Origin: a virus
Lineage: Duplodnaviria; Heunggongvirae; Uroviricota; Caudoviricetes
Reading direction: 5' to 3' (one strand)
DNA length: 28,944 nt
IMG/VR virus record: IMGVR_UViG_2667527522_000007
Part shown: positions 1 through 28,944 of the stretch, piece after piece
How positions within the stretch are numbered: position 1 is the stretch's first letter
How the letters are laid out: every line of letters starts with the position of its first letter
The notes under the pieces: model-generated
The model's input: the letters and a program-made list of their open reading frames with translations, nothing else
What the model was told of the DNA's origin: nothing
Databases searched by the model: none
Made by a program: the position numbers and the translations under genes

Positions 1-642
1 TTAATCGGACGCTTTTAAATTTTTATTTTTCCCAGCAGAAAAATTAGCTTTCCCGCTGTTTTGCAACTCAACAAGAGGAGATAACCGTCGGTAAACAGCC
101 AAAAGTATCTTTAACTGAACCAGTTCATCTGCCCCCGATAGTTGAACCAAGTTTTTACGTTGTTCTTCACTAAGTGCCATCACAGATTCAAGTGATTTAA
201 CTGCGTCAGAAACAAGTTCAATCTCTTTAATTTGATTCTGTATACGCAGCTTCTCTGATTTCAACTTTGCCCATTCTCTTTGTCGATATGTACGCATCAC
301 CTGATCGTAAACTTTGTTGGCAGCCAGAATACTTCCACCAACAGCAGTAACTAACTCAGCAATCTGCCAAGAGATATCAATAAGAGCAGACAATTCAATA
401 AAGCCAGGAGAGGCATACTGAATTTTTTTCACTACAGGACGTAAATCTGGTGGAGTCGCACTGTAAGCCCCTCTAAAAAAGTTCACCACACTGTGCCCAC
501 CCTCCCAAGGCATTGTTGAATATCCTCTTGATCCTCCTTTTAGGCCATAAAAAAAACCATATAGCTGCAAATACTCTTTCGTTAAGACCGCGAAATCAGC
601 TAACTCCCAACGATTATCAAGCTCAATTATAACTTTTTCCAT
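1..642 (-). CDS. Hypothetical 213-aa protein, AT-rich, just outside ogr; predicted coiled-coil-like C-terminal half
   Basis: Complete ORF with stop at window start; GGTGG-like RBS before ATG at 642; visibly lower GC than the prophage body; no family recognised by eye. Confidence 0.5.
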   Translation of the reverse strand: MEKVIIELDNRWELADFAVLTKEYLQLYGFFYGLKGGSRGYSTMPWEGGHSVVNFFRGAYSATPPDLRPVVKKIQYASPGFIELSALIDISWQIAELVTAVGGSILAANKVYDQVMRTYRQREWAKLKSEKLRIQNQIKEIELVSDAVKSLESVMALSEEQRKNLVQLSGADELVQLKILLAVYRRLSPLVELQNSGKANFSAGKNKNLKASD

Positions 643-742
643 TTTCCACCAACCTGTCCAACTTTAAAGATTGACTTTTAAGTATATGATAAACATAGTT
701 TATTAAACGTGATCCACTACTTTTAATGAAGAATATTCCCCA

Positions 743-778
743 AAACAGAAAGCCCCTCGACTGAGGGGCTTTCTGTTT
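743..778. terminator. Rho-independent terminator hairpin downstream of ogr (perfect 16-bp inverted repeat, 4-nt loop)
   Basis: aaacagaaagcccctc-gact-gaggggctttctgttt; T-rich run on the ogr (minus) strand side. Confidence 0.6.
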
Positions 779-782
779 GTAA

Positions 783-1001
783 TTACATCCACATAATTTG
801 CTGCCCTGACGGCAACGGGTGCGGTTTTACGGCGTGGACTTCTCCCGGCTTCACGATGTATCGCTGTACCGACTCATAAGTGATGAACGTGGCGCTGCAA
901 TTCACGTTCTGGCACTGGTGATAACGCTCTTTTGTCGTGTCAGTGATATAGCGACTTGTACGCGCATGTGCGGCATGCTGGCATAAAGGACAATGAAACA
1001 T
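783..1001 (-). CDS. ogr: Ogr, C4 zinc-finger activator of late transcription (72 aa; the track ORF is N-terminally extended)
   Basis: Translation from MFHCPLCQHAAHARTSRYITDTTKERYHQCQNVNCSATF matches P2 Ogr as remembered; Cys-x2-Cys...Cys-x4-Cys motif; position next to D. Confidence 0.9.
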   Translation of the reverse strand: MFHCPLCQHAAHARTSRYITDTTKERYHQCQNVNCSATFITYESVQRYIVKPGEVHAVKPHPLPSGQQIMWM

Positions 1002-5663: not shown

Positions 5664-6182
5664 TCACAGGCCGATATTGCGGCGGTGTTGCTCCAGCCGG
5701 TCGACGCCGTTCACCTTCTCAATCATGTTGATGGTGTCAATTTCGACCAGCTCCTTACCGTCCATCGTCAGCAGGAAATAGGTGCAGACCACGGAGATTT
5801 TCGACTCGGTGTCTTCTCCCTGTTTACCCTCGCCGGTGTCGATTTCTTTCTGACGTCCACGCATGACCACCTCGACGGCCACCGTTTCGCCGGTATCGTC
5901 GCGCTGGTAAGAGCCTGCAAAACGAATCGGTACGGCATCCACACCGGTTGCGGCGTAAAGCTCCCAGATAACCGAATCCGGGAAGCCACCGAGCGACCAC
6001 TCCATTGACAGCGCATCGTCATCAAGGCCGAGGTCTACCGGTGCGCTGCCGTTCATCCCCGCACCGCGATAGTTTTCGAGCTTACGGGTCAGTTTTGGTA
6101 GCGTGACGGACTTCGCGACGCCCTGATAGCTGTAGCCGTTCAGAAAGACGTTCATTAACTTGAGTTTGCGCGGCATTGCCAT
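5664..6182 (-). CDS. FII: Tail tube protein FII
   Basis: 172 aa, between sheath and E. Confidence 0.85.
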   Translation of the reverse strand: MAMPRKLKLMNVFLNGYSYQGVAKSVTLPKLTRKLENYRGAGMNGSAPVDLGLDDDALSMEWSLGGFPDSVIWELYAATGVDAVPIRFAGSYQRDDTGETVAVEVVMRGRQKEIDTGEGKQGEDTESKISVVCTYFLLTMDGKELVEIDTINMIEKVNGVDRLEQHRRNIGL

Positions 6183-7385: not shown

Positions 7386-7444
7386 CCGTTTAACTCCGTG
7401 GTTAATGGGTGAGTGATATTTTCAGTTGTGCCGGAGATGTCAGG

Positions 7445-7627
7445 CTATTTGTCCCGGTTGGCTAAGGGATGACACAATTTATTCTTTGTCGCTGATGAGG
7501 GGAATTTTTTATAGAGCGTGGACAGGCCAATATCAAAAATCAGCTCACATCCTGCGCACTCCAGCGCGTTACGCTGCAATTCCGTATTCTGGTCATTTGT
7601 TGACACGCGGACATAGCCAATAAGCAT
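7445..7627 (-). pseudogene. Serine DNA invertase (Gin/Pin/Hin family) remnant with a large in-frame internal deletion
   Basis: 60-aa ORF: MLIGYVRVSTNDQNTELQRNALECAGCELIF (invertase N-terminus with catalytic-serine motif) fused directly to DIGLSTLYKKFP (invertase C-terminal tail); about 130 central codons missing. Confidence 0.75.
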
Positions 7628-7654
7628 GATGGATCCCCTGAATAAAAACCGGGG

Positions 7655-8029
7655 ATGATGCCAGTTAGCCGTAATCTCTGCATTTTCTTAAACGTTGGTT
7701 TGGGAGAAGCGGCAAAACGGAATGTGGGAACAGGGGAAAATCAGATACCTGATATGTCATCATATGCATCAGGTTCAGGCTGGCGAAAAATGCCAGATGG
7801 TTCAATTGAACAGTGGGGACGAATTAGTTTTCCTGGTGAACACGGGCCTGTATCCGCCAATGTTTCATTCCCGATTCCATTTACACAGACACCGGGCATT
7901 GTAATTGTGTGCGATGGTGGTTTCGGGGGCGGGAATATGTGGGGGGCGACCAACTGGAGCACTACCGGCTTCATAGCTCACTGCAATTATGGTCTTGAAG
8001 GTGGTGCGTTTTTCGCTAAGGGCTGGTAA
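7655..8029 (+). CDS. Alternative tail-fibre C-terminal segment (Sv'-like), silent in this orientation
   Basis: Plus-strand ORF entering at site A with ...[11 protein letters not shown]...; Gly-rich tip; stop overlaps the next ATG (TAATGATG). Confidence 0.6.
7683..7708. repeat. Invertase crossover site A (gix/hix-like 26-bp site)
   Basis: TTTTCTTAAACGTTGGTTTGGGAGAA; 14 bp (7695-7708) is the exact reverse complement of 9508-9521. Confidence 0.6.
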
Positions 8030-8472
8030 TGATGAAATATCTGTACGTAAACAACCTGGCATATCCTTACGAACTTCAGTCTCTTTATGTTGAAAAAGGT
8101 GAATGGCCTGAAGAAAAAGGTGTTGATATAGACGAAGTAATTTTCAGGGAATATTTCTATGACACACCACCAGAAGGAAAATACAGATGTGTTGGAGAAG
8201 ATGGACTGCCTGCATGGGCAGATATTCCTCCACCAACACGTGAAGAACAAATTGCATCAGCCGAAACTAAAAAGCAGCAATTGATTAATCAGGCCAACGA
8301 TTATATGAACAGTAGACAATGGGTTGGTAAAGCGGCTATTGGTCGTCTGAAAGGTGAGGAACTGGCGCAATATAATTTGTGGCTGGATTATCTGGACGCA
8401 CTGGAGCTGGTCGATACTTCCAGTGCACCAGATATTGAATGGCCTACTCCTCCGGCAGTTCAGGCCAGATGA
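8029..8472 (+). CDS. Alternative tail fibre assembly chaperone (Tfa')
   Basis: 147 aa; C-terminal motif LDYLDALELVDTSSAPDIEWPTPP parallels the C-terminus of the convergent Tfa. Confidence 0.75.
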   Translation: MMKYLYVNNLAYPYELQSLYVEKGEWPEEKGVDIDEVIFREYFYDTPPEGKYRCVGEDGLPAWADIPPPTREEQIASAETKKQQLINQANDYMNSRQWVGKAAIGRLKGEELAQYNLWLDYLDALELVDTSSAPDIEWPTPPAVQAR

Positions 8473-22087: not shown

Positions 22088-22092
22088 ACATC

Positions 22093-22114
22093 GCCGCCTG
22101 CGGGCGGCTTTTTT
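22093..22114 (+). terminator. Rho-independent terminator after Q
   Basis: gccgcc-tgcg-ggcggc followed by tttttt. Confidence 0.6.
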
Positions 22115-22256
22115 ACACCCCGCCATCACGCCCTCACACGCTCACCACCGCACAAAACAGCCCGCAGACACACCAACGCCCCGGCGAACAATCTAAACGC
22201 CATCACGACGCGCTCAGACGCTGAAAAAATAAAATCAGCACCACCGCCAGCGCGCA

Positions 22257-22275
22257 GTGCTTTCCCCGCCTCGCC
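22257..22275. other. cos cohesive-end site (19 nt)
   Basis: gtgctttccccgcctcgcc is the reverse complement of GGCGAGGCGGGGAAAGCAC, the P2 cohesive end as I remember it; lies just after Q as in P2. Confidence 0.6.
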
Positions 22276-22560
22276 CGCCCGCTTCACGGGGCGGTTTTAA
22301 TGCAGTTGCATAGATACTATGGATCCGCACCAGTCCTGACCGCACGCCGCCTGAACGGACATCCCCAACGCATGCAAAAACATTCACTTGTTGCATGCAT
22401 AGCTTTTTAAGTACGCCATACCGCAACTGTACATTTTTAAGCAATTGGCAACTTTAAAAAATTTACATTGCTTTCAAGACCTTATCATCCGTAGTCTCTG
22501 TTTTTTACTTTGAGCTACATCAATAAAATCTCAAACATGTTTAATGCAAAGCCCTTGTTA

Positions 22561-22615
22561 CACAACATAGAATGTATGCCTAGAAACAACGACATACTAT
22601 ATGTTGTGTTTTTCC
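22561..22615 (+). other. Long imperfect hairpin with U-tract (candidate sRNA 3' end or attenuator) in the accessory cassette
   Basis: cacaacata...tatgttgtg 9-bp outer stem with an inner gtatg/catac stem, followed by ttttt; possible promoter TTTACA-15-TATCAT about 80 bp upstream (22462-22488). Confidence 0.3.
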
Positions 22616-22675
22616 GGCTCTCTGTTCGGTGATATGCCAAATCACTTTGCGTTTAAACAGAGCATTATTTCAGGG

Positions 22676-22690
22676 CAAGACTTCGCTCAA
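22676..22690 (+). repeat. 15-bp direct repeat, copy 1 (caagacttcgctcaa)
   Basis: Exact 15-mer repeated at 22940-22954. Confidence 0.5.
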
Positions 22691-22753
22691 AAGTCATTCC
22701 ACCTAAGAAGCGCATATACCGGTGGAAGTTGCCCTCTACTTACAGGAGGCAAT

Positions 22754-22867
22754 ATGAAGAAATGCTATTACTGCATTCTCGTTCTGGCCCTCTTTGGCTA
22801 TCCAAACGGTAGTCCGAGTGGTTTGTCAGTAAACGTCAGTAATATCAATGTCAGCATTATGCTTTAA
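22754..22867 (+). CDS. Small 37-aa hydrophobic peptide, function unknown (candidate moron or small toxin-like peptide)
   Basis: AGGAGG 4 nt upstream of ATG; MKKCYYCILVLALFGYPNGSPSGLSVNVSNINVSIML; terminator immediately downstream; the 88-aa track ORF 22601..22867 has no RBS. Confidence 0.3.
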   Translation: MKKCYYCILVLALFGYPNGSPSGLSVNVSNINVSIML

Positions 22868-22880
22868 TATGCTTCAAACA

Positions 22881-22910
22881 AAAAAACCACCTGCCAGGGT
22901 GGTTTTTTTG
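22881..22910. terminator. Bidirectional rho-independent terminator (A-tract, hairpin, T-tract)
   Basis: aaaaaaccacc-tgccag-ggtggttttttt; could terminate both the small-ORF transcript and the convergent early operon ending with A. Confidence 0.6.
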
Positions 22911-22939
22911 CGCCCATCATCAATACGATGAAAGACTGA

Positions 22940-22954
22940 CAAGACTTCGCTCAA
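22940..22954 (+). repeat. 15-bp direct repeat, copy 2 (caagacttcgctcaa)
   Basis: Exact copy of 22676-22690; the pair brackets the small ORF and terminator. Confidence 0.5.
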
Positions 22955-23169
22955 GACGAATTATGCGTCGACATAAGGTTACCCGCAATGATTTTATTAG
23001 ACTAAATGGATGGCCTTTTATGACCCGGATCAAACGGCTGTCCTTACCGACATGCTAGTCACTCAATAGCATTTAGCCTTCTAATTCAGCATGCTATTGA
23101 CCTTCTGCTGCCCCATAACTGCTCCGCATAAGCCATTCAATGCCATATCAAATCACGTTGTGTTTTTAC

Positions 23170-27963: not shown

Positions 27964-28944
27964 ATGGCAATTAAGAAGCTCGATGATGGTCGCTATGAAG
28001 TGGACATTAGACCTCGCGGTCGCGACGGAAAACGCATCCGCAGGAAATTCGAAAGAAAAGCTGAAGCACTAGCATTTGAGCGATACACAATCGCCAATGC
28101 CAGTCAGAAAGAATGGGGAGGCCAGCGAGCAGACCGCCGGACTTTGAGTGAGTTGCTGGACATCTGGTGGAAATATCACGGGCAAAACCACGAGCATGGA
28201 ACAAAAGAGTTTAATCATCTACTCAAAACCATCAGCGGCATAGGTGATATACCAGTGAACAGGATGAGCAAAAGGGCTTTGATGGATTATCGTTCCATGC
28301 GACTACGTGATGGTATCAGTGCCGCAACGATAAACCGTGACATGTACCGATTATCCGGCATGTTCACAAAATTAATTCAATTGGATGAATTTTCCGGGCA
28401 ACACCCAATTCACGGACTGCCGCCACTGGCGGAGGCCAACCCTGAAATGACGTTCCTGGAAAAAGCAGAAATCGAAAAACTGTTAAATGTTTTGGCTGGT
28501 GATGACTTACTTGTCGCGCTTTTATGTCTGAGCACTGGAGGAAGATGGACGGAAGTTGCCACGCTAAAACCAGCACAGATTACAAATTGCAGGGTTACCT
28601 TCCTGAAAACCAAAAACGGTAAAAAGCGAACCGTGCCGATTTCTGAGGAACTGGAGAAAAAAGTTAAAGAGGAGGCCAGCGCCAAATTATTCAAAGTTGA
28701 TTATGAGAAATTTTGCGGGATTTTACGCAGAGTGAAACCTGATATACCACCCAATCAGGCAACCCATATCCTGCGGCATACATTCGCAAGCCATTTCATG
28801 ATGAATGGGGGCAATATAATCGCACTGCAACAGATTCTGGGACATGCGAGCATTCAGCAGACGATGGCCTATGCGCACCTTGCGCCTGACTATCTGCAAA
28901 ATGCCGTCGCTCTGAATCCACTAAAAGGCGGAGTGACGTTATAA
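27964..28944 (+). CDS. int: Tyrosine integrase (start chosen at MAIKKLDDGRYEVDIRP; the track ORF starts at 27934)
   Basis: N-terminus matches P2 Int as remembered; catalytic-domain residues present (...HILRHTFASHFMMNGG...MAYAHLAPDY); stop coincides with the window end. Confidence 0.9.
   Translation: MAIKKLDDGRYEVDIRPRGRDGKRIRRKFERKAEALAFERYTIANASQKEWGGQRADRRTLSELLDIWWKYHGQNHEHGTKEFNHLLKTISGIGDIPVNRMSKRALMDYRSMRLRDGISAATINRDMYRLSGMFTKLIQLDEFSGQHPIHGLPPLAEANPEMTFLEKAEIEKLLNVLAGDDLLVALLCLSTGGRWTEVATLKPAQITNCRVTFLKTKNGKKRTVPISEELEKKVKEEASAKLFKVDYEKFCGILRRVKPDIPPNQATHILRHTFASHFMMNGGNIIALQQILGHASIQQTMAYAHLAPDYLQNAVALNPLKGGVTL

Follow-up and report, generated by a model that had tools for sequence, protein, structure and literature searches.

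The first gene of the window, as the whole 28,944-nucleotide stretch of tailed-phage DNA analysed here is called (IMG/VR virus record IMGVR_UViG_2667527522_000007), raises two questions: whether it belongs to the prophage or to the chromosome beside it, and what its product does. The gene is an open reading frame (ORF) of 213 amino acids (aa) at positions 1..642 on the minus strand, with an ATG start and a TAA stop that is the window's first triplet. It lies next to ogr (783..1001, minus strand; Pfam Ogr_Delta, 1.1e-21; RefSeq ogrK), the late-gene activator and the final conserved P2 gene before attP. An earlier note, made from the sequence alone, had described an AT-rich 213-aa ORF beside ogr, with the window cut at its stop codon, and this description is confirmed by the coordinates, the base composition and the Ogr_Delta match. 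The ORF is found here to be phage cargo. Judging from sequence comparisons, its product is best explained, with a probability slightly better than even, as a stand-alone prophage defence protein, a short-form variant of the toxin PD-T4-10B that would need no antitoxin.

The guanine-cytosine (GC) content of the ORF is 0.399, and 0.318 at third codon positions; bases 1-749 stand at 0.385 and bases 750 to the end at 0.536. The ORF is not a chance reading frame, as shown by 118 close homologues and about 795 clusters at 50% identity. The only ORFs of at least 30 aa that overlap it are antisense (35 aa and 39 aa), and none is adjacent on the same strand. Past ogr follow the P2 genes D, U and T and the remaining P2-type late region.

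Attachment site and limits of the cassette

The attachment (att) site was located in the genome of Escherichia coli strain 1332KP (NZ_CM173849.1), which is 100% identical to the window over bases 1-1001. In this strain, the ORF is 207 bp from the host gene fieF. A 47-bp att core, GACACCATCCCTGTCTTCCCCCACATGATGTGGGGGTTTTTTTTATC, begins 86 bp past the ORF stop, outside the window and between the ORF and fieF (35220-35263 in the genome piece L002), and a second copy is found ∼115 bp past int (6026-6068 in the same piece). With one core repeat past the ORF and another past int, the ORF therefore falls within the prophage, inside attR. It belongs to the phage as cargo and not to the host, and in the lysogen no phage gene lies closer to attR.

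The empty site in K-12 (L019, 848-895) has no such ORF. Here, the core corresponds to the 3′ two-thirds of the small RNA gene cpxQ, which is also the cpxP terminator, directly upstream of fieF. The phage-borne copy of the core differs from K-12 cpxQ in a single loop base (A for C), and integration swaps the 3′ end of cpxQ for the phage-borne copy. Transcripts of the cargo ORF in the lysogen would enter the CpxQ-type terminator at attR and would thereby carry a 3′ end with CpxQ-like sequence. The core is flanked on both sides by the paired repeats TGTGGAC-N-CTATGTGGACA, conserved in ∼1,830 E. coli genomes, which we take from P2 biology to be the arm sites of a P2-family Int and which are placed as expected of such sites.

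The limits of the inserted DNA are evident from near-identical phages that lack it. At the fieF site of strain SF-088, a P2-like prophage is found in which no gene separates fieF from ogr. Alignment with this prophage (L077) shows 99% identity from fieF through the core and the arm repeats; 9 bp in SF-088 then stand opposite 761 bp here (L001 8989-9749, equivalent to window -11..749), and identity resumes at window position 750, in the stem of the ogr terminator. The free Yersinia phage L-413C (Peduovirus) is arranged like SF-088, with int, 273 bp of attP and then ogr. The window's own integrase gene (27964..28944, plus strand), whose stop codon forms the far end of the window, lies at the opposite end of the prophage and sets the att specificity linked to the cassette; its product is identical to L-413C Int at 324 of 326 positions (BLASTP). 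Both L-413C and the SF-088 prophage have the same attP core, arm repeats, ogr terminator and ogr as the present phage, as well as an Int that is 99% identical, but in place of the 761-bp cassette they contain 9 bp. The cassette, a compact moron, comprises a single ORF with an upstream region of its own and is flanked by the ogr terminator on one side and the P′ arm repeats on the other. Its upstream non-coding part measures 107 bp and ends at position 749 (643..749, minus strand), as defined by the sequence and the alignment with SF-088.

The earlier note had left open two readings, cargo carried at the edge of the prophage and a first gene in the DNA that flanks it. The latter reading draws on the position of the ORF past ogr, the last gene before attP in phage P2, and on a composition unlike that of the phage. 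It is nevertheless vanishingly improbable, given the att core repeat beyond the ORF and the absence of the gene from the empty K-12 site. Moreover, the cargo-free prophages at the site and free L-413C show that the insertion lies inward of the attP arm, toward the phage genes, and Kosakonia arachidis has an equal arrangement, with an orthologue (81% amino-acid identity) at the equivalent spot in a collinear prophage with an identical att core. A flanking host gene is excluded by the att mapping. Homology to a host housekeeping gene, together with an att site between the ORF and ogr, had been named as the sign of host DNA; no such homology was found, and att lies elsewhere. The suggestion that AT-richness reflects horizontal acquisition fits both the GC contrast and the presence/absence polymorphism of the cassette. 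Comparison with the Kosakonia orthologue gave a proportion of nonsynonymous differences (pN) of 0.12 against a synonymous proportion (pS) of 0.76, with synonymous sites saturated; purifying selection has therefore maintained the gene in this phage lineage.

The cassette contains few recognisable signals. The sequence GGTGGA, resembling a Shine-Dalgarno element, stands 4 nt ahead of the ATG, and weak sigma-70-like hexamers (TTCATT-17-TTTAAT) can be seen by eye upstream. No upstream regulatory element common to E. coli and Kosakonia was found, this region being poorly conserved between them. A terminator scan placed a hairpin, AGCGTCCG-loop-CGGACGCT, over the stop codon (L001 8992-9013); one half occupies window positions 1..13 (plus strand), the other half lies just outside, in the 8 bases before the window, and a T-run is present on the plus strand only. 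From its sequence, it looks like a terminator for transcripts arriving from the attP/int side. In the circular phage, it would end C-int transcripts after attP and not the transcript of the cargo gene itself. Transcription on the ORF strand would next meet a terminator at the CpxQ-type hairpin of the att core. At the other edge, the cassette is joined right after the stem (751-770) of the ogr intrinsic terminator (742..770, minus strand), and the same hairpin is carried by L-413C. Rfam returned no family at gathering score in the window, and around the att region only sub-threshold matches were obtained.

Relation to PD-T4-10B

PD-T4-10 was identified by functional selection in E. coli ECOR65 as two overlapping ORFs, neither with a predicted function (Vassallo et al., 2022, PMC9519451). 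PD-T4-10B is toxic and is neutralised by PD-T4-10A, which could not be deleted, and deletion of B abolishes protection against T4; the system acts as an abortive-infection defence against T-even phages (PMC9519451).

The earlier note did not recognise the 213-aa protein. Indeed, searches of Pfam, PHROGs and NCBIfam gave nothing significant, but the protein is recognisable as a homologue of the C-terminal part of PD-T4-10B: the PADLOC model PD-T4-10_B (PDLC04024) matches with an E value of 1.3e-34, aligning residues 3-201 with profile positions 139-346 of 353, and two further PADLOC models match at 7e-23 (PDLC04025) and 3e-19 (PDLC04026). The whole protein thus aligns with the C-terminal ∼200 residues of B. 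In contrast to the full B architecture (∼330-370 aa with an N-terminal DUF6575-type domain), it is 213 aa long and starts at the C-terminal domain, so that the ∼135-residue N-terminal DUF6575 domain is absent, as is a PD-T4-10A gene at the locus. An adjacent cognate antitoxin, of the kind that accompanies a Type II toxin-antitoxin toxin, is not present at this locus either. The PADLOC definition of the system, which requires A and B together, would presumably not call this gene.

The family to which the protein belongs is large. A word-indexed search returned the 118 homologues, nearly all of ∼200-235 aa, from Enterobacter, Siccibacter, Pectobacterium, Pseudomonas, Vibrio, Agarivorans and metagenomes, and a profile search of 1.84 billion cluster representatives gave the 795 clusters at 50% identity, which fall into two architectures. 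Short forms (∼200-260 aa) make up about two thirds of the best 150 clusters; long forms (∼320-400 aa) match the PADLOC B model end to end (6.7e-92 for the long form P0230). Pfam DUF6575 was detected at the N terminus of 20 of 41 long forms and a TRADD-like_N domain in two, one of which also has a weak EAD1 match. A search seeded with P0230 for PD-T4-10B of ECOR65 returned only distant proteins from outside E. coli.

The two architectures also differ in their partners. At all four long-form loci inspected, an ORF of 114-147 aa lies upstream and overlaps the long form; two of these ORFs match PD-T4-10_A strongly (1.6e-39 and 1.6e-43), one weakly (0.0032), and one has no PADLOC match. A hidden Markov model built from the four found no match in the window or at 47 short-form loci, and clustering of neighbouring ORFs revealed no conserved neighbour common to the short-form loci. 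The possibility that the window gene is a 5′-truncated pseudogene of a long form was considered and rejected, because more than 100 homologues have an equal start and length. The pseudogene reading is also ruled out by the intergenic bases 643-782, which hold no coding sequence or remnant upstream of the ORF, and by the strong purifying selection. The window protein is a complete member of the short, partner-less branch.

Elsewhere, short forms are found at the end of HP1/P2-like prophages in Pectobacterium and on a 33-kb contig, and in Enterobacter one adjoins an Ogr-like remnant. Some Vibrio copies lie within integron-like cassette arrays, and 20 IMG/VR viral contigs hold homologues, often at the contig end. 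In a prophage of Pseudomonas sp. GM80 (L006 6001-7668; also L026), the short form is followed after 28 bp by a DUF4917 protein that corresponds to the PADLOC candidate PDC-S21 (2.5e-97), and both genes are beside an S24-family repressor gene; they make up a small defence cluster within the immunity region. In a small, hand-picked survey of six other genomes, PADLOC defence proteins account for four of ten large immediate neighbours (GajA, an HmaC-like ATPase, AbiU and PDC-M51A). A different arrangement is seen in Xanthomonas (L064 6180-7708, L066 6035-7564), where a 243-aa short form overlaps by 4 nt an upstream gene for a 266-aa Fic/Doc-family protein (Pfam Fic, 1.9e-8; motif HGFHNGNKR). The pair may represent a separate two-gene system that uses this domain.

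From its fusions to EAD1 and TRADD-N, the domain can be assigned to conflict systems. The TRADD-N architectures in the literature have the effector or EAD at the N terminus, and domains of mixed type fill the C-terminal slot (PMC8195603). For this reason, the fusions do not tell a sensor from an effector, and their use as proof of an effector was rejected.

The aromatic and Gly-rich motif to which the earlier note had drawn attention, PWEGGHSVVNFF, proved to be the most conserved block among 43 homologues, with W46, G48, G49, S51, V53, N54 and F55 invariant or nearly so. Invariant positions are W12, Y24, Y28, G48, G49, S51, Y76, A77, S78, P79, G80, K178 and R185, and these cluster in the Gly-rich loop leading into helix 2, in the turn of a β-hairpin and in the last helix. 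Long forms share the same invariant set, and the W, PWxGGxS, F, SPG, K and R motifs common to long and short forms are all kept in the window protein.

An AlphaFold2 (AF2) model built with the 43-sequence alignment is confident (predicted local distance difference test 82.3; predicted template modelling score 0.81). It comprises an N-terminal α/β unit, with a strand at 2-8, helices at 14-36 and 49-61 and hairpin strands at 70-75 and 80-86, followed by five helices across residues 88-195. The C-terminal half had been described as coiled-coil-like from its sequence; its all-helical nature is borne out by the model, which shows a helical bundle and does not demonstrate a coiled coil. Foldseek searches with the model found no similar fold among solved or viral structures, with a best E value of 0.37 against the PDB and 0.73 against the viral structures of BFVD.

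Short and long forms differ in the helix that follows the YASPG motif, the short-form helix being markedly more hydrophobic. Among 50%-identity representatives, the best 19-residue Kyte-Doolittle window has a mean of 1.32 in short forms and 0.47 in long forms (Mann-Whitney p = 4e-10). Windows above 1.6, the usual transmembrane threshold, occur in 27% of short-form clusters and 6% of long-form clusters, and homologues from Pseudomonas, Vibrio and metagenomes reach 1.6-2.3. The hydrophobicity is suggestive, not diagnostic, of membrane association.

Proposed function and rival explanations

The protein would act as a prophage-encoded, stand-alone anti-phage protein, protecting the lysogen by abortive infection or exclusion. 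PD-T4-10A is coupled to the long form (four of four loci against none of 47 short-form loci), which points to the N-terminal domain as the likely part on or through which A acts. This would explain why the short form needs no antitoxin, as A co-occurs only with the N-terminal DUF6575 domain and the present protein is without it. More speculatively, the α/β subdomain (PWxGGxSxVNFF and IQYASPG, plus K178 and R185) may bind an infection cue or a substrate, with the output passing through the helix at ∼88-110, which might act on the inner membrane.

Several observations weigh against a stand-alone defence protein. The defence role is deduced from homology to one portion of a toxin as well as from the genomic surroundings, and the survey of neighbours that contributes to the latter was small and selected by hand. 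A tblastn search found the gene in none of 50,697 phage records. If the toxic domain of PD-T4-10B is the C-terminal one, a copy without its antitoxin must be controlled in another way, for which nothing was found. A consensus scan of the ORF strand upstream of the ATG detected no promoter with at least 9 of 12 matches, which bears on expression in the lysogen. With respect to a membrane output, the helix of the E. coli protein (residues 90-108) averages 1.35, below the threshold, and includes the residues Q, E and W; no more than 27% of short-form clusters lie above 1.6, and AF2 packs the helix into a soluble bundle.

Three other functions were weighed. The similarity to PD-T4-10B might reflect a shared structural domain only, the protein being a factor for lysogenic conversion or fitness with no bearing on phages, such as one related to the envelope or to stress. 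This is unlikely, since the neighbours of short forms are repeatedly defence genes, some relatives are fused to conflict-system adaptor domains, and, of the accessory genes characterised in P2-like phages, the great majority are anti-phage (PMC9122126, PMC9519451). It is improbable, too, that the protein serves as an anti-defence decoy, in which the regulatory or sensor domain of PD-T4-10B, without its toxin, titrates the trigger or poisons the PD-T4-10 oligomers of the host and so frees the phage or its induced progeny. A non-toxic fragment would be in keeping with the missing DUF6575 and with an antitoxin gene that co-occurs only with that domain, and bacterial TRADD-N proteins often have a sensor or regulatory module in the C-terminal slot (PMC8195603). 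However, short forms outnumber long forms, many genomes have a short form with no long form nearby, and short forms reside in integron cassettes and defence islands and not in phages alone. All family motifs are retained under purifying selection, which suggests an autonomous activity, and the gene is in no sequenced virulent or temperate phage record among those searched.

Little probability likewise attaches to an addiction toxin, a selfish module that would stabilise the prophage with the help of an unrecognised antidote, either an antisense or cis-encoded RNA or a host factor. The sole characterised relative is the toxin of a toxin-antitoxin pair, and the cassette occupies the extreme end of the prophage. 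Promoter-like hexamers are present on the opposite strand at window ∼663-699, though they read away toward ogr, and the hairpin terminator over the stop codon is oriented against the ORF. Yet no same-strand or overlapping ORF of at least 40 aa resembles PD-T4-10A, E. coli and Kosakonia show little conservation in the non-coding DNA upstream, and Rfam has nothing in the window. Furthermore, insertion sequences have entered the locus with no sign of a lost antidote: IS150 splits the ORF from ogr in one strain, and ISApl1 interrupts the ORF in another. The two loci are in strains M217 (L016 3287-4656) and 2018-05-2CC (L018 3132-4106), and the ORF truncated by ISApl1 sits within a heavily decayed prophage remnant.

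Going beyond the stand-alone defence protein, a broader proposal can be framed, which we regard as possible but rather doubtful. The short form would be an autonomous, antitoxin-free, single-protein defence module with a fold unseen in solved structures and the commonest form of the PD-T4-10B family, the published two-gene system being an elaborated minority. The conserved domain would sense infection and gate either its own hydrophobic helix, in the short form, or an appended DUF6575 toxin held in check by PD-T4-10A, in the long form, and the ogr-attP junction would be a third cargo slot of P2-like phages, not described before.

The ogr-attP junction in P2-like prophages

The ORF is present in 159 of 5,426 complete E. 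coli genomes (about 3%), always at an identity of at least 99%, and in the five genomes inspected it adjoins fieF in each case. A cargo-free junction of arm repeats and ogr is found in ∼1,830 of the same 5,426 genomes. Nine sampled P2-like prophages without the ORF, eight of them at yegQ, pflB or pdeI and the ninth being SF-088, all lack an annotated gene past ogr.

Two other ORFs occur at this position. ETEC6333 has a different, hypothetical 135-aa ORF on the opposite strand at the ogr-attP junction of a fieF-site prophage (L080 1662-2069). In strain 1332KP, a second, different P2-like prophage lies in tandem at a shared att site (L002 1-6100); the interval from its Ogr/Delta gene to att holds a 127-aa ORF that encodes a lipoprotein-type signal (MKKLIMVLALFSLVGC...). 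Neither the 135-aa nor the 127-aa ORF has a Pfam or PADLOC match. Three cargos at the junction suggest that it is a third variable locus of P2-like phages, occupied at low frequency.

Two defence hotspots have been described for P2, one at A-Q (old/tin) and the other at Z/fun (Rousset et al., 2022, PMC9122126; Vassallo et al., 2022, PMC9519451). The ogr-attP junction is not named in these accounts, and the word 'ogr' appears 0 times in either text. Like old, tin and fun/Z, the present gene forms a small, AT-rich, variable cassette that is flanked by conserved phage genes and probably plays a part in competition among phages, and like several systems of the functional screen (PMC9519451), it is borne by a P2-like prophage. 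In contrast to both hotspots, its cassette lies between ogr and attP, at a position that is empty in most P2-like prophages.

The two described hotspots were also inspected in the window. The A-Q position (22088-23169) contains no ORF longer than 88 aa, its GC content falls to 0.39 around 22300-23000, and Rfam has nothing there; the interval is either an empty hotspot, with the cos region only, or holds something non-coding. At the Z/fun position (∼7386-8472), between the tail-fibre and sheath genes, an inverted pair of gp53-like and tail-fibre-assembly genes (7655-8029 and 8029-8472, plus strand) is accompanied by a RefSeq recombinase pseudogene fragment at ∼7521-7628. This region looks like a decayed invertible tail-fibre switch.

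The gene is thus an architectural variant of a known family of defence toxins, at a P2 locus not previously highlighted. With about 3% of complete E. coli genomes carrying it, its practical impact is modest. Tools that demand both the A and the B gene would miss the short form, which is apparently the commonest and is highly mobile, and the ogr-attP junction, with at least three different cargos, is worth mining in P2-like prophages. As a natural truncation, with the C-terminal domain alone and no antitoxin, the short form separates the parts of PD-T4-10. If it is non-toxic yet protective, the conserved domain would be the sensor or the executor, and DUF6575 together with PD-T4-10A would be an add-on; if it is toxic, some new control must exist.

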